Virus record (IMG/VR): IMGVR_UViG_3300048583_000222
Location: 11,766-75,765 of that record
Direction: 5' to 3' (one strand)
DNA length: 64,000 nt
DNA from: a virus
The position numbers and the translations under genes were made by a program. Below are positions 3,001 to 19,046 of this stretch, one piece after another. Positions within the stretch are counted from its first letter, which is position 1. Every line of letters begins with the position of its first letter. Under the pieces are notes generated by a model that saw nothing but the letters and a program-made list of their open reading frames with translations, searched no databases and was not told the DNA's origin.

Positions 3001-6000
3001 CACGAAGTACGGCCGGTGCCTGGTTATCTGCTACCTGCCAGTCCAGATTGAATGCACGGTTATCGGTCACGATGGAACGGTGAGTAGGTTCGGTGAGGTT
3101 GTACTCATCACTCATCCTGTTGCCAAGCGTGTCTATGCGCGCATACTGAATGCCCGCCTCTTCATTTTCCGTAAGCTTCTTGTACAGTACCACATCACCA
3201 CTCTCCGTACGATGGGAGATGTACGGTGTGAAGTACTTCTTGATGCCTATGGTTACGATATATTTCTGCTGCTCTGCTGTAGGCCCGAGGTCCGGATCAG
3301 GATACGGGAAAGAGAAGAACTCAGGTACCCCTTCATAGGTACGACCCGTTTCCTTGAATCCTGTATCTATGGAGATGGCTTTCTCGGGGTTGTGCCTGAA
3401 CCACTGCTCGGTGAACACCCCGCTACTCAGCATGGAGTCCATGTTATTCTGCGCAGACTGCAATACGTTGAACCAGTTGGTCGCAGCCAGGTATCCAAAG
3501 GGTACATAGCGTACAAAGCTTTGGGCATCCTGTACGCCTCCGGTGAGGAATGCATAGCGGACCAGATCTTCCCCCAGCATGCGTACATTCTTATCCGGAC
3601 TGAGCAACAGGTCCAGCCAGGCCCGTACGTTCTCGGCATCGTCCATCCGTGTTACCTTGGCGGCGATGAAGTTCACCGAATGCGGGTCAAGTCCGTTACC
3701 CAGATCTGTATGCAGACGAGAGAGGAAGAAGTTGTTCTTGCCCCAGCTCAGCTGCGCTTCTGCTACGCGCTCTGCCAGTGATGGTCCATTTTCAGTAGCG
3801 TAGTACAGTCGTGCGCGTTCGGCAGTGATGTCTTCCACGCCCAGTGCCTGTCGTACGGCTTCGCTGTATACATAGGAACGTATGCCCTTCATCACGCTCT
3901 TCTGAATCTCCTCACTGATCTGGGTCATCGATTTACGATTCGTGTAGGACTTGATATGGGTCAGTGTGTGCAGGTACACTTGGCTATGCGGCAGGTAATT
4001 GTCGAATAGGGATAGTGCCAGTGAGTTCACGGTATCGAACAGGAATCCTTTCTCTCCACTTAGCAGGTCATTACCCCCGAGGATGACATCAGGTCCCAGT
4101 ACGATCCCTGCTTTCTCATCCTTGTCAATGACCTTGAACAAGCTGCCATCAGTACCCTTCACGTCTTGTGTGGTCAGTGCAGCCATCTCACTCATTCTTG
4201 TACCCACTGCATGGAATTCCTGGAATGCCCTGAGGATATCGCGTTGTGCCAGATAGTACTCACGCGTGTTCTTTGGCTTGTTGGCCATGTCAAGCAACTC
4301 TTTGGCGGTATATGCCTTGGCTTGTACCGGCTCTCCTTCTCCGATCTTCTTGCTAATCTCAGTGTAGAGCTGGTCGAATACGGACTGCTCGAGGTTAGGT
4401 ACATATCCGCTCAGCATATCCTGTCCGCGTTCCATCAGCAGATTGAATTGCCTGATGATGGGTTGGGACAACATGCGACTCACATAGGTGGTATTGACTG
4501 CTTTGCCTTCCTCAGTCTCGAGAGAAAGGATACCTGCAGCAGCCGGGTAAGTGTGCACAGTCAGGTTAATTTTATCGATCGTACGGTGCTTGGCGTGGTC
4601 AAGGAACTCCTGCAGCATAATGTTGATGTTGTCCATCTTCGTACGAGTCTCTGGAATTCCACTGGCGGGTACATAGACTGAAGTACCATAGCCAGACAGA
4701 TTCACCAATGATATCACACCGTCTTCGTCTTTGAAGATTTCAATAGGCGTTGGTATTTCTACCATCTCCTTGGTTTCTTCATTGTACTCCATAGTACCCA
4801 ACTTGAGGTCAAGGTGCTGGATGGTGGCGAGAAACTGATTGGTCTGTGCACCAAAGCCTACCAGGCTCTTGGCATCTTTCTGTGAAATGAAATCAGCCAA
4901 CTGACTGCTGGCCCCAAAGAAGTTACCCACGGCAGATGGTTTGGCCAGTTTCTTGGCTTCATCCTTAAGGTCAGGCTTGTCCAGCGGACTCATCATGACC
5001 GGGTACACGGAAGCTGCAGTGAGTATCTTGAAGTGCAGGTCAAAGTACTCCGCCATGATGCCGTCTGTCGCGGAAGCTGCTTTGTCGGTTATGGTATAGG
5101 GGCGACGATAGACGAAGAGTTTATCTACGTCAAAGTCAGACCCCATCTGTGTCGTGATGCCGGGAGGTACGATGATGGCGTCTCCCATATTATCAGGCAG
5201 AAAGCCGACGATCTTCATCGGGAGCATCGTGTTGTGCTTCGAAGTCGGGATACGGATACCAACCATCTCGAGTACTTCCAGGGGAAGCCTGGACATGTCC
5301 AGTGTACCATCCTCCAGCAGGAACTCGGTGATGACCATCTTCTGCCCGTCTTGGAAGAAGTGGAAGGGCACCAGTATCTCGGCCGGGGTCACCGTACCAT
5401 CTTCATTGAGTACAGGCATGCGCAACTCACGGGAGCCGTCATAGCCAGGTACCCAGGTTATTCCTGCGGTGGCGCCCAGTCCGGTGAGCATCCGGGTGAT
5501 ACCTACTGACGAGGCCTGTACGTATGACTTGCCCGGTACCTTGGTCTTCACCACGCCATCGATCATGCTCATCATGAGGTTGTGCAGTGGATCGGACAGT
5601 GAGGTGAAGAACAGTGGTGATATGGGACGGCCGTCTACCAGATGGGTGAGCGGAGCGAGTTCATTCTCTGAATAGCTTTTCTTCTTGCCCTCATCAATGA
5701 GACGCTTGATGAACTTGGCCGGATTGCGGAACCTGAACTTACCCTCGATCGCTTCGATGTCCAGTTCCTCTTTGAACTCCTCGATGTTCTCCTGTACCAT
5801 TTGGATACGAAGCGCTTCTTTTTTCTCCCGGATGTTGTCCCTGTTGTAGGTCTGCCCATCCATCAGCGTTACACTGAAGTTCTCAGGCAGGTCAGATACA
5901 ATAAGCTTGTTGGCCTGTGAGAAGATCTGGATCATGTCCTTGTTACGATCATAAGGTACTTCCTGCTGGATGCGGAATCCTTCGCGACTCAGGCGCTGTA

Positions 6001-9000
6001 CCGGCGCGAATTCTATGCTGTTGTAGTTGCCGTTCTTACCAAATGCCTGGAAGGGTTTGCCTGCACCGATCTTCTTGGCGGATATGAATTGTGCCCGGCG
6101 AATGCCGCGCTTCTCCATGTCCTTTCTCAGCTTATCCAGTTCTGTGCCGGCAGTGAAGCCAGCGTACAGTGGGATAGCAGAACTCTTCACGTAGTCATGC
6201 AACAGGGCACCGCGATCCACATTGGGACGCTTGCCATAGTACACGGGCTTGGTGATCTGCAGGGCAATGCGCTCGTGCCCTGCTCTGGTAAACTTTGCGA
6301 AGTTCGGGTCACGTACCAGTGCGATCATTTCATTGTACGTATCCTCGGCGAGCATGCCGAAGCGGAACATCACATCCAGATGCTCTTCCATGGTGACAAA
6401 TTCCTGTGCATCCGTTACGTTCACATCTTTGTATGCAGGTATGCCCTTGATGTAATCCAGCGCTACCGTGTAATCATCCAGTACAATGATATCATAGTAC
6501 ATCTGCTCGGCAGTCCACTCGGTTTCTTTTCCCGGAGCGATGGGGCCGGCCAAACGTTTCTCGTACTCGATGAGGGTGTCAGCTACTGACTTCTTGTACA
6601 CTTGTGCCGGGTCTCCGTACAGGAGCTGAGCCATGGATGTGTTGACCAGGAATGCGTTCATCGCGTAGTTCATCGCCACGAATTCAGAGAGTGCTTTGAG
6701 GTACGTTGGACGATCCACCCGTCGCTTATCGACTATGTACACATCCTTGCGTGACACGCTGATCCCGGCTTGGGTATTGGCTACCTCTTTGATGTAGCGC
6801 TCATTGAACAAGTGTTTGCCAGTAGTCATGTCGACCATGCCGGCTTCGTTGAACTTGCGCAGCTGTATGGCGGTCTCTTCTGTAATAAACTCGTTGAGCA
6901 TTCGCTTCACCAGCTTGTCGAAAGCTTCTGTTCCTTTTCCAGGTGCATTGATGACACCGTCGCTGATCCATATGGTGCCCAGTTCCTCTTCAGTGATTTC
7001 TCCGGCATCCCTTCTCGCCTTCATGTTGGCGTAGTTGAACTGCGGCATCATGAAGAAAAACTTCTTACCCTGCTCGTACTGCTGATGGTCATCGTATATG
7101 TGTTCAGCACTGTTGGCGATCCTGTCGAATTCACTTTCAAACACGCTGTACAGTCTTTCCATCAGTACCAGTGAAGGCTTTCCTACAGCACCGGTCGGTG
7201 TACGCGGGATGTTCATGAACACTGGTGTACGGGACTTGTCCGAGTGTGTAAGGCTCACGTAGTGGGACGATTCCCATCCATTGTTCATGTACATACCCAA
7301 GGCCATGAAGAGCTGGTCACGATCCGACATGTCAGTCCGCTCAGAGGCCGCTTTTCCCTTCATTTTCTTCAATCCCTCCAAATACAGCAGGTCGGCTTTC
7401 CTTCTGCTGGATGGATCATTCTCCCATACCTGCAGCAGCCAGTTGTTTCTGGCAAAGTCCGTATTTTTCAGCTGCTCTCTGTACACTCCTGACTCATCGA
7501 CCAGGTCCAGGAAAGCATTGCTGAGGTAACTGTTCAGGATGTAGTCCCACACATTGTTCCCGGCAAGGTCACGGTGCGAGCTGTTGTATAGCATGTCAGC
7601 ATGTCGTACGTAGATGCGACTGAGCATGTTCATGGTAGTATTCTCGGAGTACAGTGGATTGTTCTTCTCCAGCGTATTTTCAATGCCCTCCTCATCTTTT
7701 GTATTGAGCAGTTTAAGCAGGAACATGGAGAAGATACCATTACCTCCCCCGTCTTTTTTCTCAGACCACTCTTTGATTAGCATTTCCTCCCCAGACTTGT
7801 ACAGGGTCTCGTACATTATAGGTGTGAGCATGATGCCGTTGTACTCAAACATCTTGGTGACCAGCTCCTTGGCTGCCTTGAAATAGATACTCCGCAGTTT
7901 TGCAGCTCCTGGTCCTTTAGCTCCTTCTATCCTGCGCTGGTTCTTTGCTTTCAGCTCCTCATAGTCTGCCTTCAGTTCATCTACCTTAGCAGGGTCAATG
8001 ATATAGTAACCAGACTCTGTACGCTTCACCATAGGAGAACGCTTCTGGGCTTGCTTCCAGTTTTCCAGAACAAGCTTGCGGGCGGAGTATATGTTGGCAT
8101 TGATCGTACGTATCTCTGCGTTGTCGTCCCAGAGTTTGTACTGGATCAGTGCGTACTGTGTGTAGGACTTGGTCATCACGGTGACGAATTCCCGGCGAAT
8201 CTGTTCTGGGGTGGTGGAACTCTTCAAGCGCTGAGCCAGCTTGCGCAGGACAGGACTTCCGGATTCCAGTATTTCCATGTACTTGTCGAAGGAAGGTTTC
8301 GTGTTGGCGAGCATACCCGTGACGTTATCGTATAGGTTCTCCAGTTCAGCAAGGGTAGGGGTACCAATAAAAGAGGGTATGTTGACCAGACCACGCTCCT
8401 CTACAAACGGTACGATCTCCAGCAGCACATCGCCTTCCTTGGCTTCGTGTTTCTCCGCAGCGATCGCTGTGCCATCCGGACCAGTGCGCATGAAGTCCAG
8501 GTTCTCACGCTGATCACCTTCATTGTATTCCTTGGCTTCCTGTGCCGTCATGGGTTTTACTGGGCGAACCACATACCACGTGTCTCCAAGCTTGATGCTC
8601 CCGGAGTCCCCGGGTTTCAGGGAAAGGCCGATGTCGGCGAGCTGTTTTGGCGTGCGGACCGAGTACTTGCGGGTACCGTCAAGGATCTGCTGTATGTACA
8701 CATGCCCCAGCGGCAAGCCGATCACCTTGGGCTTGAGCAGAGGTCCTTCTTCCACATTCTCAGTAGCTGCTATGTAGAGCTTCAACCTGCCCGATGCCGT
8801 AGCTTTTGGGTCCAGGGTGAAGATCAGGTCATTGAAGTTCTCAATCGCCTTGGCTTCCGTGGATACAAGCTCGCCGTCAGTGAGCTGGTCTGTAGCCCCG
8901 TTGCTATCCAGTTCGTTGACCTTGATGCCATAGATGGCCAGACGACGAATGGTAGCCTTCATCAAATATTTCAGGGAGTACAATACATCCTCCATGTTGC

Positions 9001-11671
9001 GTGCATAGGTAGCACCCATCTCCGGAGTGATATGGGTATAATGCGCAGTACCCTTGACCATGACTGCCTTACCTGCGGCACGCGTCTGGTAGATACGCAG
9101 CAGCAACTTGAAGCGCTCCTCTATAGTGTCCTTCAGGGTCTTCACGTCGACACGTTTGCTTTTATTGACTTCCTGTGCGGTAAGGTAGATGATCGAGTCT
9201 GTAGCCTGTGTCTGCTGGAACTGATCAAAGAATCTTCCGCTCTTGCTGCCATCGGCATTGCGAATCTCTACAAACTGCTCGGCCCGGGCTTTGCGCAGCA
9301 GTTGCTCATCGATGCTTAAGGGTTCCCGTAGGGTTTGATCCTGCAGTACCATGTCAGAGGCAATGAACCTCACGGCCAGGTTGTCCATCAGTCCCCTGAA
9401 TCTTTTCTCAAATATGATGTTGTCCGGGATGGGCCCGGCTTTGACAAACATGTTGGCCATTTCCTTGGCGCTGAATCCGCTCAGCATCCTGTCATGGGAG
9501 GTGTACCCAATCAGGAATTGCATGGTGGGGTTCTCCATCGCGGTTTGGTACAGGGTACGCATGTTCTCGATCACGCGTTCATCAGGCATCCGGTTACCGG
9601 CATTCTTACCACCAAGCTTTCCTTCTACGGTGACCAATGGGTATGACTTTCCTTCTGTACCGGTGGATATCTTGGAGTGCTCCCCGAGTACTACCCACTT
9701 ACCCTTGGTACCTCGTACACTGGGGAATTCCTTGGGAGTATACTCTCTGCCTGCGGCAACTGCTGCTGCGCCTGCTCCGTGAAGTCCCTGGTTGTTGGCG
9801 CCGAAGACGAACACTTGGTTCTCACCCAACGCAGTAACCAGGCCTTCGTAGGTACTGTTCTTTACCACGGTCTCTCCTATTGCCGCATCCTTTGCAGAAG
9901 AAGGAGTCATGCCGGTTGTAAATACATTCTGAGTGTGCTCGTATACATTCTTAATAGCAACCTCTCCTGACGGCGTTAGCTCTCGTGTACCTATACCTGC
10001 AAAGTTCTTGGTAAGTGTAGGAGTACCTTGCCATACGAACTTGTTACCATCCCACTTGAACCACTGCCCTTTTTCCTGGTCGAATACATTGACAGGTTTG
10101 CCAGCATCGATAGCCATTTGGACAGCCCAGCCTGTTCCTCCTTTTACTTCTGTGAGAGAAGTCAATTTCCCAATAGCAAATACTGCATCACTGTTCTTAA
10201 CCTGCATCCAGTTACGGGCCAGAAGATCCATATACTTCTCAGGCTTTCTTTTCAAGGTCTGATTAGCCAGCATCACTTTTTCCTTTCCCTCTGCAAAATC
10301 AGCATCGTTTACCTCATCCTCTGGTTTGGACAAGGGGTTTAGGGTCCCATGCCAATAATGCTTGTGATTAGTTACTCCAAAGGTTCGTCCAATCCGATCC
10401 CATGCTGTGTCAGATCCTTTTGCACCGCCAGAGTGATTAGTTAGTGCAGCCATTTCTGTAACAGGATCCGCAGCCATGCCCAGTACAATGGCATCTGGTA
10501 AGCTGTCCCAGGCGTTCATCCATTCCGCTAAATACTTGGATTCTGCAAGGCTTTCATTTAATATGTTGGTAGCAGCTGCAAATGCTTCTGTATATAAGGT
10601 AGGGTTCTCCTTGTTAATGTTCATTGCATTAAGCAGGAAGTCCATAATCTGTTGTAGGAGATTATCGTATTTACGGCCATCCATAGCTGGCAATTCCTGC
10701 AATTTCTTGATAAGTGTTCCATTGGTAAACAGGGCAACAAAGAACTCATCTTCATTGTACATACCATAGATACCTTCCTTAGTAGCAGGGAGATATCCTC
10801 CCAAGTGCTTTTTCGCATACTGATACAGCTCTCTGAAGTCAGAGCTAATTTCAACATTATCCTGCAATTTGCGCCATGACAGGGCATGTAGAATCTCGTG
10901 GATTAGAATTTGATCCATACGTGCACCGGAGTTTCTGGCTATCACGATTTCGTTTGCTGACGGGTCATATATACCAATAGCTTGTATCGGACTGTTACCC
11001 ATACGATTAGCACTGATAACAGCTGAATCTTGCGTTGTGATCTCTATATTGTTGACCTCTGAAAATTGCAGTAGGTGCTCTGCAATGGTAGCAAAGCCGA
11101 TGTTACTATCTGCAATGCGTTGCAGTACATCTGACACTTTGTTAGGCCCATCCTTTGTTACGTACTCTTCCAGTGTGAGGGTTTTGCTACCATCTGCTTT
11201 AGACACTACAGCTCCTGCTGCTTCAGGTCTGGGTCGGATCTCTATACGTGCAGTAACGGGATTGTACACAATCAGCAACTTCTTGTACAGTGGTCCGGAG
11301 ACTTCGGTAAGTTGCTTATCCAGTGCCTTGGCCAGTTTTCGATTGCCTTCGTACTCAAAGAGGCGCCCGGGGATCCGCTTAAGTCCCCCATTCCAGTTCT
11401 CCACCAGCTTCATGTGCTGGGCTACATGGGACACACTTCCCAGTCCAAGTACCTGCAGCGCAGCGTCAAGTGTGGGCTCACCCTGAAGGGTACGCGGGAT
11501 TCGTACGTTCTTGTTCCGAACATCTGTCCAGTCACCGGTCTTTCGCAGGTATTCTACACTGCGTAACATGTACCAGGCTTGTGTTGCGATCTGCTCTCCC
11601 ATTAACTGAGAAAGCCCCGCGAACAGCATTGAAGGTTGACTGTTGGGGGCTTCGAAATTACATTGTAACAT
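2..11671 (-). CDS. Giant virion RNA polymerase polyprotein (>3,890 aa, 3' end beyond window); order N to C: zincin, SLOG, macro-like, RNAP core, zincin, Dda/RecD-like helicase
   Basis: ATG at 11671, 3 nt after the stop of the upstream ORF. Manual translation of many segments and of the window edge is open in one frame, and the ORF track lists no terminated ORF in this frame. Catalytic motif QMGSDFDVDKLF (DFDVDK at 5120-5137) is preceded by GIRIPTS and by YGDPA..YKK..KRLAGPIAPG, as in crAss-like vRNAPs. Also HEILH (10886-10900), HELMH (2564-2578) and GAGGTGKTT (1700-1726). Confidence 0.92.
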   Translation of the reverse strand, partial: MLQCNFEAPNSQPSMLFAGLSQLMGEQIATQAWYMLRSVEYLRKTGDWTDVRNKNVRIPRTLQGEPTLDAALQVLGLGSVSHVAQHMKLVENWNGGLKRIPGRLFEYEGNRKLAKALDKQLTEVSGPLYKKLLIVYNPVTARIEIRPRPEAAGAVVSKADGSKTLTLEEYVTKDGPNKVSDVLQRIADSNIGFATIAEHLLQFSEVNNIEITTQDSAVISANRMGNSPIQAIGIYDPSANEIVIARNSGARMDQILIHEILHALSWRKLQDNVEISSDFRELYQYAKKHLGGYLPATKEGIYGMYNEDEFFVALFTNGTLIKKLQELPAMDGRKYDNLLQQIMDFLLNAMNINKENPTLYTEAFAAATNILNESLAESKYLAEWMNAWDSLPDAIVLGMAADPVTEMAALTNHSGGAKGSDTAWDRIGRTFGVTNHKHYWHGTLNPLSKPEDEVNDADFAEGKEKVMLANQTLKRKPEKYMDLLARNWMQVKNSDAVFAIGKLTSLTEVKGGTGWAVQMAIDAGKPVNVFDQEKGQWFKWDGNKFVWQGTPTLTKNFAGIGTRELTPSGEVAIKNVYEHTQNVFTTGMTPSSAKDAAIGETVVKNSTYEGLVTALGENQVFVFGANNQGLHGAGAAAVAAGREYTPKEFPSVRGTKGKWVVLGEHSKISTGTEGKSYPLVTVEGKLGGKNAGNRMPDERVIENMRTLYQTAMENPTMQFLIGYTSHDRMLSGFSAKEMANMFVKAGPIPDNIIFEKRFRGLMDNLAVRFIASDMVLQDQTLREPLSIDEQLLRKARAEQFVEIRNADGSKSGRFFDQFQQTQATDSIIYLTAQEVNKSKRVDVKTLKDTIEERFKLLLRIYQTRAAGKAVMVKGTAHYTHITPEMGATYARNMEDVLYSLKYLMKATIRRLAIYGIKVNELDSNGATDQLTDGELVSTEAKAIENFNDLIFTLDPKATASGRLKLYIAATENVEEGPLLKPKVIGLPLGHVYIQQILDGTRKYSVRTPKQLADIGLSLKPGDSGSIKLGDTWYVVRPVKPMTAQEAKEYNEGDQRENLDFMRTGPDGTAIAAEKHEAKEGDVLLEIVPFVEERGLVNIPSFIGTPTLAELENLYDNVTGMLANTKPSFDKYMEILESGSPVLRKLAQRLKSSTTPEQIRREFVTVMTKSYTQYALIQYKLWDDNAEIRTINANIYSARKLVLENWKQAQKRSPMVKRTESGYYIIDPAKVDELKADYEELKAKNQRRIEGAKGPGAAKLRSIYFKAAKELVTKMFEYNGIMLTPIMYETLYKSGEEMLIKEWSEKKDGGGNGIFSMFLLKLLNTKDEEGIENTLEKNNPLYSENTTMNMLSRIYVRHADMLYNSSHRDLAGNNVWDYILNSYLSNAFLDLVDESGVYREQLKNTDFARNNWLLQVWENDPSSRRKADLLYLEGLKKMKGKAASERTDMSDRDQLFMALGMYMNNGWESSHYVSLTHSDKSRTPVFMNIPRTPTGAVGKPSLVLMERLYSVFESEFDRIANSAEHIYDDHQQYEQGKKFFFMMPQFNYANMKARRDAGEITEEELGTIWISDGVINAPGKGTEAFDKLVKRMLNEFITEETAIQLRKFNEAGMVDMTTGKHLFNERYIKEVANTQAGISVSRKDVYIVDKRRVDRPTYLKALSEFVAMNYAMNAFLVNTSMAQLLYGDPAQVYKKSVADTLIEYEKRLAGPIAPGKETEWTAEQMYYDIIVLDDYTVALDYIKGIPAYKDVNVTDAQEFVTMEEHLDVMFRFGMLAEDTYNEMIALVRDPNFAKFTRAGHERIALQITKPVYYGKRPNVDRGALLHDYVKSSAIPLYAGFTAGTELDKLRKDMEKRGIRRAQFISAKKIGAGKPFQAFGKNGNYNSIEFAPVQRLSREGFRIQQEVPYDRNKDMIQIFSQANKLIVSDLPENFSVTLMDGQTYNRDNIREKKEALRIQMVQENIEEFKEELDIEAIEGKFRFRNPAKFIKRLIDEGKKKSYSENELAPLTHLVDGRPISPLFFTSLSDPLHNLMMSMIDGVVKTKVPGKSYVQASSVGITRMLTGLGATAGITWVPGYDGSRELRMPVLNEDGTVTPAEILVPFHFFQDGQKMVITEFLLEDGTLDMSRLPLEVLEMVGIRIPTSKHNTMLPMKIVGFLPDNMGDAIIVPPGITTQMGSDFDVDKLFVYRRPYTITDKAASATDGIMAEYFDLHFKILTAASVYPVMMSPLDKPDLKDEAKKLAKPSAVGNFFGASSQLADFISQKDAKSLVGFGAQTNQFLATIQHLDLKLGTMEYNEETKEMVEIPTPIEIFKDEDGVISLVNLSGYGTSVYVPASGIPETRTKMDNINIMLQEFLDHAKHRTIDKINLTVHTYPAAAGILSLETEEGKAVNTTYVSRMLSQPIIRQFNLLMERGQDMLSGYVPNLEQSVFDQLYTEISKKIGEGEPVQAKAYTAKELLDMANKPKNTREYYLAQRDILRAFQEFHAVGTRMSEMAALTTQDVKGTDGSLFKVIDKDEKAGIVLGPDVILGGNDLLSGEKGFLFDTVNSLALSLFDNYLPHSQVYLHTLTHIKSYTNRKSMTQISEEIQKSVMKGIRSYVYSEAVRQALGVEDITAERARLYYATENGPSLAERVAEAQLSWGKNNFFLSRLHTDLGNGLDPHSVNFIAAKVTRMDDAENVRAWLDLLLSPDKNVRMLGEDLVRYAFLTGGVQDAQSFVRYVPFGYLAATNWFNVLQSAQNNMDSMLSSGVFTEQWFRHNPEKAISIDTGFKETGRTYEGVPEFFSFPYPDPDLGPTAEQQKYIVTIGIKKYFTPYISHRTESGDVVLYKKLTENEEAGIQYARIDTLGNRMSDEYNLTEPTHRSIVTDNRAFNLDWQVADNQAPAVLREGNTVVPNGQRPVEIEQNSNVHPIYTQVLGITKEVSEVEDINDTIIPHMLNSGTLPGVYHTLLTELHNFSGSQEFQDLIEEITYDRTSANRGPNSSGRLQIGFASGRPAYLLPENSIILQQVTPGASLRPDAAAGVQETFVHELMHWATLPMIEFAYRRTKGESTSVFEKHFDYNDPVMQSARHIVKLWEFARKGHEGEYWASSPHEFVAHATTNAETMKILNDMKYDGERSVLEAVWDFLNTLFNNIANMIGEPVKHDSVLAEALPHIIHVMKQGGVTEILTAGTVEYNDRDVIVGVRADGVAVKVHDSFMHGMPEPVRQKAISEVLGLYGKPEEDEDSVPWIEDGTEYTIIPGQPPVFPKIGKKPAENKPEVGMSRYELFPGVFANEKQREAIDRIPAFIGDVDSKLMAGENIPFEQRVFVLSGAGGTGKTTILRKVLAEFADRKMVITAPSHNAIVELKSALGKVKETLPNAKVDTIHAQLDLKRNAIKSMQTGTDVFEQKRGKFKKPLRSSSIIVVDESSMLDDTLMNYLKQDAPDNAVVIFMGDYAQLTPVGQVNDSLPFREYINTAGISLTQNMRTNKADVVTVLNAYRAAIDGVRAGTGTYKFPVVAFPNRVSSENVSYLSSREDFFNSFMNELSKDMKNPKNALMIVSTNKVREEFNLMVRTKRFGEAIATSTKISAGDIAIFNSAHEPTRLSAETAQRLGELEAKADFFNMQRVIVESVVPGRVTKDTVALDRDGEPWFAVKVDLPGFDYKFDLGSELENIVVETQGITKDTYYEIKNRIEGDKRKGEPNRYVNGGFNIPADLRGMSGGADFLAYPKYVAMMEALSKLIVDIEPAYTVTSHKSQGSTYNHVFVHEYNFIGPAQHKFSDKEVMNGMYTAVSRTKEHLYILHPANPKTVNLQANSMLLAASATVADGTPGPWTFRNEVEAAKAAKVLEERLQIKTEREGVNIIVHANPKALTQGNPKKPKSLSAELNKIISALEQQKETINNS

Positions 11672-11674
11672 ACG

Positions 11675-14600
11675 TTATCCGCATTTAAGGAATGGATTGT
11701 GTCCATCAGCCAGATATGGAATATTTGCTTTGATCATTTCTCTGTAGACCTGATCAGGCGTTTTCCCATTCCGTACCTCAGACGGTGTGAAGGTATATAA
11801 ATCCTTCAATATCTTCATGGACAAAGGCTGCATATCTGCACTAGGCACGATGGAAGTTACGGTATGCCCTACAAGATCAATATTGGAGTTCAACTCCATG
11901 CCCAGCATCTCATTGGCAGCGTCCAGATCATCGGCACTGAACTCCTCCGAATCGGAGGTAGTGGGGGTGGTTACCTCAGGTATAAGGGTAGCCGTGACTG
12001 TCTGATCTTCCTTGAGTATAACAGTAGCGTCATCGAAGAAAGTGATCATCGGATTGGCAGCGTACACATACTTACCGGCAAGTTGGTTGCGCCCATCTAC
12101 GTATGTGGTGGCGTGAGATTTCACGTAAGCATTGTAGTTAGCATGCTTGTGCACCTTCCACCCACTGGTCTGGTATAGTACTTCCTGGAACTTCTGGTTG
12201 TTATTGATACCCATTACCTCATCCTTGGTGTAGTTCACGTTCCGGTACCGGGTAGCCAGCCCTGCTCTTAAAGCTTCTACGAATTCAGGAGATAGCTCCT
12301 TGTTGCGCAGGTTGGCTACAATGGGCTGCTGTCCTGAATTGGCAAAGCCGATCATGACTGTGGCCAGTCCAGTGGACGGGTCGGTGACATTAAACAGGAA
12401 GTTATTGTTATCCGCCTCTGGGTTATGTGCCGTGTGGGAGGCGTCAAAAGACTGCAGGTAAGTGTACTGCTGGGTGATGAACCGACGCAGGTGCGCAGCA
12501 TTGCCAAAATCGTAACCCGTACGGGCGAAGACATCTTTCAACTCTGCCTGTACATCCGCATCCTTGCTCTTCAGGTACAGCCAGATGGCCCGCTCTACAG
12601 TACGCAGGTCGAGCTCATTCTCCAGCTTGTCCATGTACAATGGAGATACGGTGACAGACCCATTGGCCATGGGGAGCACTACTACAGGGGCATTGTGCCA
12701 TCTGTCCAGTTCGTCTATCGTGTTGTTCACCTCGATTGGGTTGTTCCGAGCTGTGTTGACCACGGTCTGGTTGATCACCGCCAGAGAGAGTGTGGTATCG
12801 GGGAGCATGTCTGTTGCCGGCATGCGGGTGTACTTGGGCTTCTCTCCCGTGTTGTCCACGTGGAGGATTACCCTACCTGGGCCCTTGGCTTCTATGGTGA
12901 GTTGTACAGTACCGGCTTCAGAGATCAGCCTGCGCAGCTTACTCAAGCGCTCTTGTTGTATGGCAAGGTTGTCGATGATTGTACCGTCCTCCAGTTCGAT
13001 GGTCTCTACGATGTTGCGCATGCGCTCGGGACCGCCTGTTCCCGGGAATTGCTCCATCATCCAGTCCCCTGTAGCCAGATATCCGATTACGGTACCCCGC
13101 TCATCTACCAGACGTATGGGTACATTCATATGGTCAGTCACCTTACCATCAGGGTCCGTGAAATCGGAGAAGCTGATGTCCTGCAACTTGTTGGCATGCC
13201 CATGTACCTTACCCTTGCCCTGATAGTTCTTGTCCAGTTCCGCGGTGACCTTAGTACCAGGCTTCAGCTGGGTGGGATCGAGGATAGCTGGATTGAGATT
13301 TGGGTTGAGTCCAACACCTGCTATGCGGTAGTTCCCCTTATCATCGGTGTAGTCCACCGGGTTCAGGGTAGTGGTGTTCACTTTCAGCATACTTACTGCC
13401 TTGGCTTCGTAGTGGGACTTATCCTTACCAACCACAACATCCGGAGCATTGTCCGTCTCGGGTTGTTCAGGGTCTGTCACTACAGGGCCATGGGTAACCT
13501 CAGTCTCGGTCTTCTCAGGTTTCCCTGTCTTGGTACCCTCATCTGTATGGGTCTCCCCGGGAGTTTCCTGATCATCCTGCACGGTAGGCAGACTCTTGAT
13601 GTACTTGCGCAGGGCAGTCAGTGTGTCCATCACCTCATCAGAGAATATAAAGAACAATCCATCATCCAGTGCCTGCTGTGTTTCTGGCAAGTTGCGGAAG
13701 TCTATGTCGGGCAGATTCGGGTCCCGCTTCAGTGCTTCTTCGAATGCGGCAAAGGCAGAATGGGCCTCCGCAGGAATATTCTCCTCCAGTACTTTCAGGT
13801 ACTCAGCCTGCTCTTTGATCAGTACATCGATCTCGTCTTCCACCGGTGCTTCTGGAATAGGTACCGGAGGTGGCGTAACAGTCTGACTGGCAGCCAGTGC
13901 TTTCTCCACATCTGACTTTACAATCTGCTTTCCGTTACGACCAGTAGGTACAATGGTGTTGATGTCCAGTCCATTGAGCTCCGCCAGGGCACGTGCTGCA
14001 GGTGTGATACTCACCCCAGTTTTCGCAGCAGGTTTTCTGGTCTTAGGAGCCGGTGCCGTCCCTGGCGGTGGTACTGTACTTGTAGCTGCTTGTGCCGCCT
14101 GAGCTGCTTGCTCATTGGTTTCCTGCTGTGCGAGTATTTCAGCAGAGTTAAGCTTGAGGGCATCGTGCAACGCAAGTTCTTTTTGTTGTAGGTCATTGAG
14201 TGCAGATTTAAGGTTACTCAAATCGTACTTGTGCTTGAGCATCTTGGTCTTCCAGTTCAGGTTCCACATGGAATGTTCTGTCAGCTTCAATGCATTGATC
14301 TTCTGTATCACAGCAGTTATCCTGTCTTTGATTTGTACGATCTCCTTTTGGGTGGCGTCGAGTTCAACCTCGAGTTTCTGCTTGTGTTTATCCAGACTGG
14401 TCTTGTTGCGCTCTACATGAGCAGCTGCTGCATTGCGGGTAACCTGTGCCTGTAAAGCCACTTTACGATCTTCCTCAATCATCTTCTTACGCTGCTCGTC
14501 AATGGGCCCTTTGATCTTCTTCAGCAGCTTCTTCACGTTGTTGGAATCACTCATGATGTCGTTCAGGTTGGCCTGATTAGCCTGAATCCTTGAACGAAGT

Positions 14601-16915
14601 TCCTCCAGCGAGGCCTTGTACGCAACGAGGTCAGACTTCTTACCGTACTTGGTTGCGAGAAACTTGACATAGTCCTGCAGAGAAGTATTGGGATTCTCTT
14701 TAAGATACTCCTGGTATCCTGCACTGTTAAGCAGATCTTCTGCCTTCTTCTGCATGGTCTTCTTGGAAGATTCAATCTGAGAGTCCATCATTTTCTGCAG
14801 TGCCTTGATCGTAGCCTCAGGTCCGATGTGCCCTACCATCTTGTACTTCTCGAGTATCTGATCTATGGTCTTTGCATCCTTATTCGTGATGGCATCATTG
14901 AACTTCTGTACGTCACTGCTGATGCGGTCTACAATCTTCTGATGCATGTCAATCTCCTCCTGTGCCCTGTTGGCGCCCGCATGCCATACGTCCGCATCAT
15001 AGGATGAATTGCCGTACACTTCATCGTACTCTTCTTCTGCTTTCGCAATCTCAGCATCTCCCTTCTGGAGTAACCGCTTCTGACGGTACACTGTTGCTGA
15101 TTGCTGGAACAGGTAATCTGCCACACCGAGCGTCTGCTCCTCAGGAGTAGTGAACTTGGCGTAGATAGTATCGTGCAGCTTTTGATAGTGCTTGATGTCT
15201 TCGATAGCTTCCTTGGCGCGCTGCTTATAGGAGTTGTCGTCGATATTGCTTGCCAGTCCTTTCTTCATGGCTTCACTCTCCTTGCTTTCTTCCTGCAAGA
15301 TGAGGGCCTCTTTCTGGCGCTGCAGCTCTTCCCGTACGACAGGATCTTCTGTCTCGCGCATCTGTAGGTTCAGCTCATCCAGCTGGGCCGCGGTATCGGT
15401 CTGTGGTACGGTATTGTCCGTGCTGGCAATCTCTTCGAAGGTAGAGATCCAGTTCTCTCCCATACCTACCTGCACGGCATTGAGCGCCAGTACATCGAAG
15501 AGCTGCATGCGAATGCGCTCCATGCCCACCTCGTCTCCAGCTGCCTTGGCTTGCGCCAGTTCCGCCATCTTCTTTTCCTTCCAGTCAAAGTCAGCAGCCA
15601 CAGCTTTCACCAGGCTGTCGAAATAACGTCGCGTACCATCTGCTTGGAGTGTACGGGAACTGACCAGCTTAGTCTCGCGTTTACCATCCATGGGTACATT
15701 CTCATCTACTATCTGCCTGTGCATAGGTATGTTATCCATGATCGCTGTCTGAGCCACACCTCCGAACGCACCAAGGATGAAGTTGAGGGCACCTTCTTGA
15801 TTGGTGACATCACTTAAGGCCCTGTCAAATGAAGTCAGAGATTCCACCAAGTTCTTCTTCTGCCCTTCTCCTACACGCTTACCTTCCGCTTCCGCGTACT
15901 GGGTGTTGATCTCTTCCAGACCTTCCTGTAGTGACTCACTGCCATAGGATGTGATGCCCGAACGGAGCTTTGAAGGAGCTACTTCCTCATAGGCCTTACG
16001 CATCCGTACAGCGAAATCATCTGCCGACTCTCCAGCCATAGGTTTGCCATTCTGCTTCATGAACTGCAATGCCTTATCCTCCGCGTTGCGGAACATGGGT
16101 GCCAGGGCAGTCATGTTCAGGGCCGTGTTCATAATCGTATTCATCTGTACAGTAGTGGATGCCGCATCAGCTGCTATCGTCTTGGCTTGGTTAGCGGCTA
16201 CATTGGGGTCCAGCCCTGACTCTACAAGTTTCCTGTATTGCGCGTTGTAGGCATCCTCGTACACCCGGTAACCACTCATAGCCCCTTCCATGTATGCCAG
16301 TGAGCTGGCCGTGGCAGCGCGCGCTGCAACACTGGCAATCTGCCCCGTGGTACGTCCTGCTGTTGCTGCAAGTTTGGCTAGCGACATGAATCCTTTACCG
16401 ATAAGAGCCCCTGGCAGCGCGAACTGCGAGGCACTTTCAACAAGTCCCCCAATATGAGTGATCCACCAGGCGGAGTCTGTCAAGTCAAAAGTCTGCTCAG
16501 GGTTTTCCAGGTACACTTCTCCAAATGGGTTCTTAGCGGACTTCATCAACTCAGTCAGCTCATTGCTATAGTCTTTGTCCTTGCCCCACTCCCCCACCAA
16601 TGATCCAATATATCCTGTCATCTCTCCTATACCGGTGATGATGTTGAATGGAAGATTAGCCAGTTGTATACCTGCACTTTCCCAGCCTCCCTGATCTTGA
16701 GCACGCAGCTTATTATTATCCGCATTGCTTTTCAGTTGGAATCTATAGTCGTTCTGATCTTCTCCTTGTGTGATGTCTCCACCATATTTGGGATCTACAG
16801 GAGTAGCATGCTGTTGTGCAAGAAGATTCCCGAGCCTGGACTTTCCTTTGCCGGGAGGTTCTTCCAGATTAGATGTACTATGAGTATTGTTGAGAACCTG
16901 TTTGAGATCTGGCAT
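11675..16915 (-). CDS. Large virion cargo/ejection protein (1,746 aa) with internal E3-binding (PSBD)-like domain
   Basis: Long ORF directly upstream of the vRNAP, as in crAss-like phages; coiled-coil-rich, with a hydrophobic Gly/Ala segment near the N-terminus; PSBD-like motif at about 13892-14017. Confidence 0.75.
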   Translation of the reverse strand: MPDLKQVLNNTHSTSNLEEPPGKGKSRLGNLLAQQHATPVDPKYGGDITQGEDQNDYRFQLKSNADNNKLRAQDQGGWESAGIQLANLPFNIITGIGEMTGYIGSLVGEWGKDKDYSNELTELMKSAKNPFGEVYLENPEQTFDLTDSAWWITHIGGLVESASQFALPGALIGKGFMSLAKLAATAGRTTGQIASVAARAATASSLAYMEGAMSGYRVYEDAYNAQYRKLVESGLDPNVAANQAKTIAADAASTTVQMNTIMNTALNMTALAPMFRNAEDKALQFMKQNGKPMAGESADDFAVRMRKAYEEVAPSKLRSGITSYGSESLQEGLEEINTQYAEAEGKRVGEGQKKNLVESLTSFDRALSDVTNQEGALNFILGAFGGVAQTAIMDNIPMHRQIVDENVPMDGKRETKLVSSRTLQADGTRRYFDSLVKAVAADFDWKEKKMAELAQAKAAGDEVGMERIRMQLFDVLALNAVQVGMGENWISTFEEIASTDNTVPQTDTAAQLDELNLQMRETEDPVVREELQRQKEALILQEESKESEAMKKGLASNIDDNSYKQRAKEAIEDIKHYQKLHDTIYAKFTTPEEQTLGVADYLFQQSATVYRQKRLLQKGDAEIAKAEEEYDEVYGNSSYDADVWHAGANRAQEEIDMHQKIVDRISSDVQKFNDAITNKDAKTIDQILEKYKMVGHIGPEATIKALQKMMDSQIESSKKTMQKKAEDLLNSAGYQEYLKENPNTSLQDYVKFLATKYGKKSDLVAYKASLEELRSRIQANQANLNDIMSDSNNVKKLLKKIKGPIDEQRKKMIEEDRKVALQAQVTRNAAAAHVERNKTSLDKHKQKLEVELDATQKEIVQIKDRITAVIQKINALKLTEHSMWNLNWKTKMLKHKYDLSNLKSALNDLQQKELALHDALKLNSAEILAQQETNEQAAQAAQAATSTVPPPGTAPAPKTRKPAAKTGVSITPAARALAELNGLDINTIVPTGRNGKQIVKSDVEKALAASQTVTPPPVPIPEAPVEDEIDVLIKEQAEYLKVLEENIPAEAHSAFAAFEEALKRDPNLPDIDFRNLPETQQALDDGLFFIFSDEVMDTLTALRKYIKSLPTVQDDQETPGETHTDEGTKTGKPEKTETEVTHGPVVTDPEQPETDNAPDVVVGKDKSHYEAKAVSMLKVNTTTLNPVDYTDDKGNYRIAGVGLNPNLNPAILDPTQLKPGTKVTAELDKNYQGKGKVHGHANKLQDISFSDFTDPDGKVTDHMNVPIRLVDERGTVIGYLATGDWMMEQFPGTGGPERMRNIVETIELEDGTIIDNLAIQQERLSKLRRLISEAGTVQLTIEAKGPGRVILHVDNTGEKPKYTRMPATDMLPDTTLSLAVINQTVVNTARNNPIEVNNTIDELDRWHNAPVVVLPMANGSVTVSPLYMDKLENELDLRTVERAIWLYLKSKDADVQAELKDVFARTGYDFGNAAHLRRFITQQYTYLQSFDASHTAHNPEADNNNFLFNVTDPSTGLATVMIGFANSGQQPIVANLRNKELSPEFVEALRAGLATRYRNVNYTKDEVMGINNNQKFQEVLYQTSGWKVHKHANYNAYVKSHATTYVDGRNQLAGKYVYAANPMITFFDDATVILKEDQTVTATLIPEVTTPTTSDSEEFSADDLDAANEMLGMELNSNIDLVGHTVTSIVPSADMQPLSMKILKDLYTFTPSEVRNGKTPDQVYREMIKANIPYLADGHNPFLKCG

Positions 16916-16916
16916 G

Positions 16917-19046
16917 TTATTTCTTTTGTAAGTCTTTCTGCATTTCCTCTACTATAGTACCAAGTTTACTGGACACCTCGCCTGGAGTATTGTACAGATA
17001 CTTCTGCTGTGTACCATCGGCTAATCTGAACACAGCTTCGTATTGTGGTTTGACATTTCCATACTCCTCATTGGTTGATATACCCGATGGATTTACCCTG
17101 CGTAGGCTTACGGTTTCTTTTTTTCCTCCGGGGAGTGCCAAATCAAGCGCTTTATCCGGAGAAGTTTCGAGGTCTCCTAGCGATTGTGCCACAGCTTGTT
17201 TGAAGTAGTGACTTTCTCCTGTGCCCAGTAAGTACTGGATAACATCCTGACCGGCATCCATCTTTACAAGACGTGTGGTTCCTACAGTCTCTCCATCTTT
17301 AGTACCCAGTTTACCTACTTTGAATACGACTTTGTACTTACCATCAGCAGGGTCAATGAACCATCCTCCAAATTTGGAGTCGCCTTTAATAGCTCCGTAG
17401 TCCTTGTCAGTCAACTCAGACCCGTCCATGTTCTTCATACCCAACAGGCCTCCTTTCAAGCCTCCAATGTCGAGATCCTGTGCCAGGTTTGTTACCATGT
17501 TTTCCATGGCTGTGTTTGCAGCTTTACTACGGAACTGCTGTATCGGAACCTCTACAGTACTATTCTGAGCATCTGCCTTTAGTAACTGAGCATAGCGTTG
17601 ATACCCGTCAGTATTCTGTAGTACCCTGGCGTAGGCGTCCTTGTACCGCTTCTCACGCAGTGCCTTTGGATCCCCTGATAGTTCAATAGCCCTATCAAGT
17701 AGATTGTAAGCTTGTTGCCCTGCTTTCTTGGCGTCTTTAATCAGCTCTTCGGTAGGATGGAATCCTGCCTTTTCCATAATCCGCTTTTCACGACTTTCCA
17801 ATGCTTGCTGGGTTCTACGTGCTTGGGCAATCATGTCATTGTTCTTGTCTACTACGTCAGTTACATCCATGTTCTTGCTGTCAATGTAACGCCCATTTGC
17901 ATTTTTAGTAACTCCGTTCAAGCGTAAGTAGTCGTTGGCTCCTGTCTCAAGCTTAGTTACAGCAGTCTGTGTGAGGTCTTTGGCACTGGCCAAGTCTGTA
18001 GGTGTCGCATATTGCATTCCCGGCAGACTAACTTTAGCAAGTCCTGCGAACGTAATCTTATTTTCATCTTCCACCCGTGCTTTAATTCGCGCAGCTGTTT
18101 CTTCAGTAGCTCCCATGTTCTTCCATACGTACTCGTGATCGTTGCGCTGGTACTTCTGACCCATTAGATCTACAGTCTTTTCGATCTCGCTGTACTTGGA
18201 CTGGGCTTTGTACAGCTGGTAGGCCTGCTGCAGGGTAACACCTTGCTGATCTGCAATCTGCTGCAGCTGCGGATACAGAGGGGACTGCTTGATGGCATTC
18301 TCGGGAGTGTACTTGGCATCGTAGCTGTTGAGCAAGGTTTCCTGATTCACCCAAGCCTGGTATTTGGGATCTGATGCCTTGGCTGCATCTATGATAGGCT
18401 TGATCTGTGTTTTGTAATCAAGTTGCTTACGCGTGTTGCCTTCCATGATGTAGAAACCATTGATGTCTTTCTGTATCGTACGTCCTGTAGTGGTTTCTTT
18501 CAGTCCGATCAGCTGCTTGTCGATCCATGCAGGTACATCGAGGTCATCGACCATAGCCTGACCCTGGAACTGGTTCTTCAACTGACCCGTGAGCGGATCA
18601 CGTTGCAGTCCCTTGTACGAACGCGTAGAATAATCCAGCATCTTGGCCGCACGATCGGGTGATACGGTACCCTTGTCGACTTTCTCTTTCAGCTCTTTCT
18701 GGTACTCTGCATACAGCTGCTGGTTCTGTGCAATGGGCTTGTACTCATTGACAAAGTCCCGGGCATCGCGCGCAGTATCACGGACCATGTTTTCATAGTC
18801 TCCTTTCTTGGCACGCTCTCCGAGCCTTCCCTTGTACTTCTCTTTCAGCTCGAGCAGGTGCTTGGTATCCTGCCCGAGGGAGGTAGCCTGCTTAATGCCC
18901 TGATCGATCGCATCTTCGTACTGCAATGCTGTGTCATACCGTCCCTGCATGACCTGTGAAGCTTGGGTCAGCTCAGGAACAGAAGAACCCACAAAGCGTG
19001 GGATCTCTTTACTGTTCGATAATTGGTACATTCCGTAGTCAGGCAT
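16917..19046 (-). CDS. Putative virion cargo/ejection protein (709 aa)
   Basis: Tightly packed ORF between the cargo genes and the giant RNAP genes; helical/charged composition; assigned by synteny only. Confidence 0.55.
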   Translation of the reverse strand: MPDYGMYQLSNSKEIPRFVGSSVPELTQASQVMQGRYDTALQYEDAIDQGIKQATSLGQDTKHLLELKEKYKGRLGERAKKGDYENMVRDTARDARDFVNEYKPIAQNQQLYAEYQKELKEKVDKGTVSPDRAAKMLDYSTRSYKGLQRDPLTGQLKNQFQGQAMVDDLDVPAWIDKQLIGLKETTTGRTIQKDINGFYIMEGNTRKQLDYKTQIKPIIDAAKASDPKYQAWVNQETLLNSYDAKYTPENAIKQSPLYPQLQQIADQQGVTLQQAYQLYKAQSKYSEIEKTVDLMGQKYQRNDHEYVWKNMGATEETAARIKARVEDENKITFAGLAKVSLPGMQYATPTDLASAKDLTQTAVTKLETGANDYLRLNGVTKNANGRYIDSKNMDVTDVVDKNNDMIAQARRTQQALESREKRIMEKAGFHPTEELIKDAKKAGQQAYNLLDRAIELSGDPKALREKRYKDAYARVLQNTDGYQRYAQLLKADAQNSTVEVPIQQFRSKAANTAMENMVTNLAQDLDIGGLKGGLLGMKNMDGSELTDKDYGAIKGDSKFGGWFIDPADGKYKVVFKVGKLGTKDGETVGTTRLVKMDAGQDVIQYLLGTGESHYFKQAVAQSLGDLETSPDKALDLALPGGKKETVSLRRVNPSGISTNEEYGNVKPQYEAVFRLADGTQQKYLYNTPGEVSSKLGTIVEEMQKDLQKK

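Follow-up and report, generated by a model that had tools for sequence, protein, structure and literature searches.

The peripheral subunit-binding domain (PSBD) of the 2-oxoacid dehydrogenase complexes is a textbook module that holds the E3 and E1 subunits on the E2 core. Among the crAss-like phages, large proteins that travel in the virion have been described, and one of these, gp47 of crAss001, was detected in virions by mass spectrometry and is grouped with the RNA polymerase (RNAP)-associated cargo proteins, at ~6 copies per virion; for the cargo proteins of this phage, partial unfolding and ejection have been proposed (PMC10172136). Here, we analyze a 64,000-nucleotide stretch of phage DNA (referred to as the window; positions 11,766 to 75,765 of IMG/VR record IMGVR_UViG_3300048583_000222), in which a PSBD is encoded within P0002, a 1746-amino-acid protein that we call the carrier. 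The domain family itself is known; what is new is its presence in a putative virion protein of a crAss-like phage, where it is limited to two sister phages.

A subunit-binding domain within a large phage protein

A reading of this DNA made without database searches (the sequence-only reading) had proposed a PSBD between Pro/Ala linkers at window positions 13850-14110, and this was borne out by the Pfam score, the modelled fold and the translated linkers. The peptide and both linkers are the exact minus-strand frame 1 translation of this region, which lies inside an uninterrupted open reading frame (ORF). The features concerned, with amino acid (aa) positions of the carrier, are as follows:

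11675-16915, minus strand: carrier gene, P0002, a 1746-aa ORF at the gene position of crAss002 gp32 and crAss001 gp47
14015-14125, minus strand: N-side linker (aa 931-967), Gln/Ala-rich, then Pro/Ala/Lys-rich and basic
13889-14014, minus strand: PSBD fold (aa 968-1009), from Pfam, PDB sequence matches, AlphaFold2 (AF2) with Foldseek, and nonsynonymous divergence (pN) from the sister phage
13835-13888, minus strand: C-side Pro-rich linker (aa 1010-1027), from the translation

The Pfam E3_binding search that had been put forward as a check gave a match (PF02817) spanning aa 970-1004 (window 13904-14008), with 33.6 bits for the whole protein (E 4.5e-8) and 39.2 bits for an 87-aa piece (E 7.9e-10), both above the curated threshold of 23.7 bits. 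When all six frames of the phage genome were searched for E3_binding, exactly one PSBD was recovered, at 39.5 bits, and both sister phages are above the cut-off, with a best E of 3.1e-11 in the carrier family. Using the same Pfam model on three genuine E2 proteins from a Bacteroidota metagenome-assembled genome (MAG), we obtained 36.6, 37.7 and 63.3 bits, so the phage PSBD is in the ordinary score range. The match is also not a low-complexity artefact, since relatives that have a Pro-rich linker and lack a PSBD give no match: E3_binding was not found by Pfam in 18 of 20 aligned homologues, the nearest of which (P0004-P0006) are still Pro-rich at the site. When the PDB was searched by sequence, the matches were almost all PSBDs of E2p, E2o and E2b, with the N-terminal PSBD of an alpha/beta-hydrolase (7qjm) as the top match (E 5.7e-5). 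The presence of a PSBD in the carrier ORF is thus confirmed.

The fold was modelled with AF2 for aa 955-1015, built on a 30-row alignment. This model has a mean predicted local distance difference test (pLDDT) score of 79, with 84-91 in the core, and contains two helices (model residues 18-27 and 46-58). Its top 29 Foldseek matches in the PDB are all PSBDs (probability 0.82-1.00), most with a root mean square deviation of 1.0-1.4 A across 39-45 residues, and the PSBD-E3 complexes 1EBD, 2EQ7, 3RNM and 1ZY8 are among the Foldseek matches.

Examination of the 30-sequence alignment demonstrated that the positions conserved in E2 proteins are retained, i.e., P972, R975, G982, D984, T991-G992, G995, D1002 and V1003. 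We take the basic residues through which the Geobacillus domain binds E3/E1 to be Arg135, Arg139 and Arg156; presumably, R975 is at the Arg135 position and Glu979 at the Arg139 position, where Glu is common among the aligned E2 domains. At the third basic position, ahead of the last helix, the usual Arg is replaced by Lys996, a substitution that several real E2s share, and Pro990 precedes the Thr-Gly pair, as it does in 31 of the 269 PSBD domains counted. Both phage copies contain an extra residue after Lys996, Q997, a spacing that was found in 3 of these 269 domains. The net charge of the phage PSBD is +1, within the E2 range of -2 to +6.

Selection on the domain was assessed by comparing the carrier genes of the two sister phages, P0002 and P0003, between which synonymous sites are saturated (synonymous divergence, pS, ~0.73). 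The values for each part of the protein were:

PSBD: pN 0.246, 64% aa identity, no indels
Conserved N-terminal domain: pN 0.24, 63% aa identity, few indels
Conserved C-terminal domain: pN 0.20, 68% aa identity, few indels
N-side linker: pN 0.50, 23% aa identity, indels present
C-side linker: pN 0.60, 33% aa identity, indels present

The PSBD is under purifying selection, because its pN and identity match those of the conserved domains while the linkers diverge and contain indels; the linkers need only remain linker-like. We also considered base composition. The GC content at third codon positions (GC3) of the PSBD with its linkers (window 13835-14125) is 40%, compared to a gene mean of 58%, which is in the lowest 2% of windows, but the sister phage lacks such a dip (GC3 50% vs 56%), and we draw no inference from this value as a compositional trace of foreign origin.

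The sequence-only reading had also suggested that homologous cargo proteins be checked for the insert, and of 27 homologues of similar length only two, P0002 and P0003, contain PF02817. These two proteins are 61% identical, and their gene neighbours are alike (713 aa, 1750 aa and 3868 aa with P0003). At the same site, the nearest relatives without the domain (P0004-P0006, 41-48% identical) contain a Pro-rich linker only. Searching 10 related records genome-wide (8 crAss-like contigs from IMG/VR, 3 of them complete, plus crAss001 and crAss002) identified no PSBD. This distribution is most parsimoniously read as a single gain of the PSBD, before the two sister phages diverged.

The hinge in which the PSBD sits (aa 931-1160, window 13436-14125), between the helical middle of the protein and the C-terminal domain, is a site of exchangeable cassettes in this family. 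For example, one clade of homologues (P0007, P0008 and P0010-P0013) contains a different conserved hinge insert of roughly 70-90 residues, and P0025 contains another, longer one. None of these alternative cassettes matched a Pfam family.

Wider searches returned no further phage copy: tblastn with the PSBD against 50,697 GenBank phage records, with E up to 1, gave no match; pattern scans of IMG/VR found no other phage and no close relative of the PSBD; a word-based search of proteins of 960-3056 aa recovered the query alone; and full-text literature searches for a phage PSBD gave nothing relevant. When 1.84 billion representative proteins were searched with aa 945-1025, the matches were ordinary E2s with 30-57% identity (~47% among the best-scoring), and the few named by source came from unrelated groups, Emcibacter and Thermoflexales. 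Identity to the E2 PSBDs of the Bacteroidota MAG is 36-38%. With E2 matches this distant and taxonomically scattered, no donor lineage can be named. The top three matches of this search (P0029, P0030 and P0031) were discarded as repeat-protein artefacts that sum many weak matches.

Many of the nearest E2s (including P0032, P0035 and P0064) contain two tandem PSBDs. In these tandem E2s, the first PSBD is often of the ‘Pro-Thr-Gly’ subtype, like the phage copy, and the second is of the common ‘Gly-Thr-Gly’ subtype.

Predicted docking on dihydrolipoyl dehydrogenase

Any E3 or E1-beta partner of this domain would have to be the host's, because the phage encodes no E3-like or E1-beta-like domain: searching the phage genome for Pyr_redox_dim, Transketolase_C and Biotin_lipoyl domains found none. 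MAGs also contain relatives of the carrier: one, from groundwater, is labelled Bacteroidetes, and another Flavihumibacter. The Bacteroidetes MAG encodes both a dihydrolipoyl dehydrogenase (Lpd, i.e., E3; 570.7 bits with TIGR01350) and three E2s with PSBDs, and proteins named from Sediminibacterium and Chitinophagaceae share 87-93% identity with this Lpd. The carrier homologue in the groundwater Bacteroidetes MAG (L013, JACPEA010000007.1:183780-192921) is located deep inside a 233.7-kb contig, which could reflect integration of a crAss-like element, binning of a phage together with its host, or a scaffold that is chimeric.

We modelled a complex of two copies of the Lpd of this MAG (30-row alignment) with PSBD residues 962-1012. 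The complex scored 0.62, against 0.00 for the best of three controls, with the MAG Lpd serving as a stand-in for that of the true host. This mark is reached by 58 of 80 solved complexes and by 2 of 110 mismatched pairs, although these benchmark counts are only a rough guide to the present complex, which has its own alignments and three chains. The model runs share at least 90% of their contacts, and partner pLDDT is at least 77.

In the model, the PSBD makes contact through T971, P972, A973, A974, R975, A976, E979, R993, V999 and K1000, and Lpd through residues 405, 407-411, 435 and 437 of one copy and Glu435 of the other, all at the C-terminal interface domain of Lpd. The predicted position of the PSBD is on the two-fold axis of the Lpd dimer, since Glu435 of both copies is contacted. 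Solved PSBD-E3 complexes place the PSBD at this same dimer-axis site; the presumed equivalence of individual residues with those of 1EBD is based on an ungapped alignment with an offset of 8. In the sister phage, 7 of the 10 predicted contact residues are identical, and the three that differ are T971S, A976R and R993K.

The carrier protein and its gene neighbourhood

The remaining parts of the carrier, and the genes on either side of it, are the following:

15056-16915, minus strand: conserved N-terminal domain (aa 1-620), from the alignment and the match to crAss002 gp32
14126-15055, minus strand: Lys/Ala/Leu/Glu-rich segment (aa 621-930) leading into the hinge, from composition
11678-13435, minus strand: conserved C-terminal domain (aa 1161-1746), from alignments, an AF2 model and BFVD matches
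16917-19046, minus strand: upstream 709-aa protein, at the position of the small cargo proteins of crAss001
2-11671, minus strand: downstream neighbour of at least 3890 aa, with only a C-terminal helicase domain seen by Pfam

The source record in IMG/VR is 95.7 kb and is rated 100% complete. Genes for the terminase, portal and major head protein (PHROG E 6e-84, 7e-93 and 7e-75, respectively) are located on the minus strand upstream of the carrier, and are followed by tail/virion proteins, a 539-aa protein, the 709-aa protein, P0002, and the ORF of at least 3890 aa; the 539-aa and 709-aa proteins matched no Pfam or PHROG family. The corresponding order is gp29, gp30, gp31, gp32 (2020 aa) and gp33 in crAss002, and gp44, gp45, gp46 and gp47 in crAss001, where gp44, annotated as a virion structural protein, is the muzzle protein (PMC10172136). 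This phage has the Crassvirales type of gene layout, and the carrier gene lies between the tail/small cargo genes and the presumed virion RNAP gene, as in crAss001 and crAss002.

Sequence similarity to the cargo proteins of these two phages is limited: aa 30-193 of P0002 match the N-terminus of crAss002 gp32 with an E of 5e-8, covering 9% of the query only, and hhalign of P0002 with crAss001 gp47 gave a weak probability of 12.9%. The C-terminal domain, which terminates in an invariant G-x-N-P-F-x-x-C motif, was modelled by AF2 with a pLDDT of 83.3 and a predicted template modelling score (pTM) of 0.73. Its fold matches in BFVD are large crAss-like phage proteins (E 1.6e-8 to 1e-3, with low TM-scores), annotated as ‘Structural protein’, ‘Putative RNAP associated protein fused to zincin protease’ and ‘Structural protein [Cellulophaga phage phi4:1]’. 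Compared to the PDB, the C-terminal domain showed no convincing fold (Foldseek TM-scores <0.15, best VIA Z 5.4), and an Atlas search with this part gave no usable match. Gene position and the likeness of the C-terminal fold both favour the description of the carrier as a virion cargo protein in the sequence-only reading; its packaging in the virion and ejection into the host are plausible by synteny and fold likeness with the crAss001 protein.

The segment at aa 621-930 is almost free of Pro and Gly, and is probably a long helical or coiled region; weak coiled-coil-type Pfam matches (SPAM and APG6_N) occur within the carrier family. Look-alikes of the N-terminal domain in the Atlas are viral hypothetical proteins, some in clusters with LPD22 or LPD14, which are domains of polyvalent proteins. 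This domain also contains an acidic cluster that is invariant in 20 homologues (E327, E331, G332, E334, E335 and Q339; window 15900-15940), which suggests a catalytic or metal-binding site at ~aa 327-339.

The carrier is not an E2 chain, because it contains neither a lipoyl domain nor an acyltransferase domain (no Biotin_lipoyl or 2-oxoacid_dh match in Pfam). Pfam recognized no enzymatic effector domain in P0002, and there was no PHROG family match. Transmembrane segments were predicted neither in the carrier nor in the four upstream proteins (Kyte-Doolittle threshold 1.6, 19 residues). No public sequencing run was listed with the carrier gene, and no RNA holder was listed.

Possible roles of the domain and comparison with known systems

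Taking the identity and fold of the domain, its insertion site, its restriction to one lineage and the purifying selection on it as the starting point, the reading that we prefer, with a probability of roughly 0.45, is that the PSBD still performs its original function, docking the phage protein onto host E3, and possibly also onto E1. The ancestor of the two sister crAss-like phages would have taken the PSBD from a 2-oxoacid dehydrogenase E2 gene; inserted into the Pro-rich hinge of a very large virion protein, the domain would have been retained as a functional handle for docking. If crAss001 gp47 is a guide, the carrier would be packed in the virion and ejected into the host, and in the host cytoplasm the PSBD, on its flexible linkers, would bind the two-fold axis of the Lpd dimer, possibly also E1, using a surface formed by helix 1 (T971-A976, including R975) together with two basic residues, R993 and K1000. 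What would most probably result is a phage protein tethered to an abundant host enzyme or complex, and E2 could also face competition for E3 from the many carrier copies produced late for progeny virions.

The sequence-only reading had gone further, to the sequestration of E3 or E1 and the rewiring of carbon/NADH flux. Stoichiometric metabolic shutdown or flux rewiring by injected copies is unlikely, because such proteins are present at ~6 copies per crAss001 virion (PMC10172136), too few to titrate E3; since injected copies are few, sequestration or flux rewiring would be workable only through copies made late in infection. We consider it improbable, in this more specific form, that two environmental crAss-like phages plug a virion-delivered protein, and perhaps also the polymerase machinery that travels with it, onto host E3, whether to deprive the pyruvate, 2-oxoglutarate and branched-chain complexes of E3 late in infection or to gain a landing platform.

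Several observations weigh against docking on host E3. The insert is restricted to two sister phages, while other members of the family do without it, and PSBDs also occur in proteins that are not E2s. The loop insertion at Q997 might alter specificity. Packaging and ejection of the carrier are argued from synteny and fold likeness. Binding to host E3 is so far a prediction, made with an Lpd from a Bacteroidota MAG in place of that of the true host, and although the complex score favours the docking proposed in the sequence-only reading, this pass may reflect only a likeness to the solved PSBD-E3 complexes, or the model's memory of them.

A possible, if doubtful, alternative is that the fold was kept and the partner changed; the PSBD would then be a docking tag put to a new use, a small plug held by a flexible tether, for a phage protein (e.g., in a packaging or virion polymerase assembly) or for a different host protein. 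This reading stays live because PSBDs are also found in cellular proteins other than E2. E3_binding is present in 131 of the 132 nearest proteins, and of these 131, 71 also contain a lipoyl domain and 67 a catalytic domain, many of the sequences being fragments. Carriers that are not E2s (among P0076, P0151, P0085, P0125, P0054 and P0083) include a Ser/Thr kinase with three PSBDs, a ribosomal L21 with one PSBD at its C-terminus, and proteins in which 2-4 tandem PSBDs are joined by low-complexity linkers, among them acidic proteins with 3-4 copies and linkers rich in Ala, Gly and Gln. In one locus (L024:1468-6140), three PSBD-bearing genes are located among apolipoprotein/phasin-like genes and a gene encoding a Pmp3 membrane protein. 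We discounted the tandem-PSBD loci as evidence for phage, for although their neighbours match PHROG tape-measure families (E ~1e-7), Pfam identifies these matches as apolipoprotein/phasin-like amphipathic repeats. These cellular PSBDs outside E2 look like an unexplored use of the domain as a docking tag.

A change of partner would also fit the rare one-residue loop insertion that is common to both phage copies, and the different cassettes that other family members carry at the same hinge. However, all of the positions conserved in E2 PSBDs are retained, the complex model places the PSBD on Lpd with high predicted confidence and clean controls, and no alternative partner was identified as a candidate, in a phage that has no E3-like or E1-beta-like domain of its own.

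It is unlikely that the PSBD is a passenger or structural bead, which would have arisen by illegitimate recombination between Pro/Ala-coding linkers and would serve as a fast-refolding spacer at the hinge, with no specific partner, in a protein that unfolds for passage through the tail. In favour of such a spacer, the hinge is variable in length and content, Pro-rich linkers pre-exist in the relatives without a PSBD, and most carrier homologues lack the domain; furthermore, PSBDs are well known for ultrafast folding (titles of 1W4E, 1W4H and 2WXC; PMC7589632), and partial unfolding during ejection is what is proposed for the crAss001 cargo proteins (PMC10172136). However, purifying selection constrains the PSBD as much as it does the conserved domains, in contrast to the freely drifting linkers, and the residues predicted to contact Lpd, including basic ones at the surface, are conserved or conservatively replaced in the sister phage, which a mere spacer would not need.

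Contact of a small, basic, helical module with phage DNA, in the capsid or during ejection, is highly improbable, as a basic N-side flank in both phages and the presumed location of the carrier beside packaged DNA are set against a PSBD net charge of only +1 and well-scoring structural matches that include no nucleic-acid-binding fold, and we know of no precedent for nucleic-acid binding by such a domain.

Should host E3 or E1 prove to be the partner of the PSBD, this would be a clear example of subunit mimicry directed by a virion protein against central carbon metabolism, in an abundant but poorly understood order of phages. Host takeover through mimicry of an E2 subunit would then be a mode for which we found no description in the literature. 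If the partner is another protein, the PSBD would be a general plug-in docking tag, as its carriers outside E2 in cells also suggest. Either way, the hinge of the carrier family would be a swap site for lineage-specific host-interaction cassettes. A PSBD peptide of ~50 residues offers a simple biochemical handle that can be used against the Lpd of candidate hosts.

Four known groups of proteins bear comparison with the carrier. Polyvalent proteins (Iyer et al. 2017, PMC5512222) are, like the carrier, very large and multi-module, with lineage-specific accessory modules, and are thought to be delivered with DNA; unlike the carrier, they have no recorded link to this domain in the main text of that survey, which contains no E3-binding, lipoyl, lipoamide or pyruvate dehydrogenase terms (PMC5512222). 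The RNAP-associated cargo proteins of Crassvirales (crAss001 gp47 and crAss002 gp32, and the ‘structural proteins’ of Cellulophaga phages phi4:1 and phi14:2) occupy the same place in the gene order, and the carrier resembles them in the N-terminal similarity to crAss002 gp32 and in the C-terminal fold match in BFVD; however, its sequence similarity to the gut crassviruses is very weak, and the PSBD is absent from crAss001 and crAss002. The cellular PSBD proteins outside E2 are like the carrier in that the domain is appended to an unrelated protein, often with low-complexity linkers, but they are apparently cellular, none is a virion protein, and their PSBDs do not contain the phage loop insertion.

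The closest relatives of the domain itself are the E2 PSBDs, e.g., that of Geobacillus stearothermophilus E2p (1EBD and 1W85). In contrast to E2s, the phage protein has no acyltransferase core, and no lipoyl domain is present in the protein or the genome; the phage PSBD also has a Lys and a one-residue insertion where E2s usually have Gly-Arg. The family and fold are nonetheless the same, in a domain of ~40 residues between flexible Pro/Ala-rich linkers, and the phage copy keeps both the Pro-x-x-Arg with which helix 1 begins and the Thr-Gly-x-x-Gly loop. Its predicted place on the E3 dimer, at the two-fold axis, is also that of E2 PSBDs.

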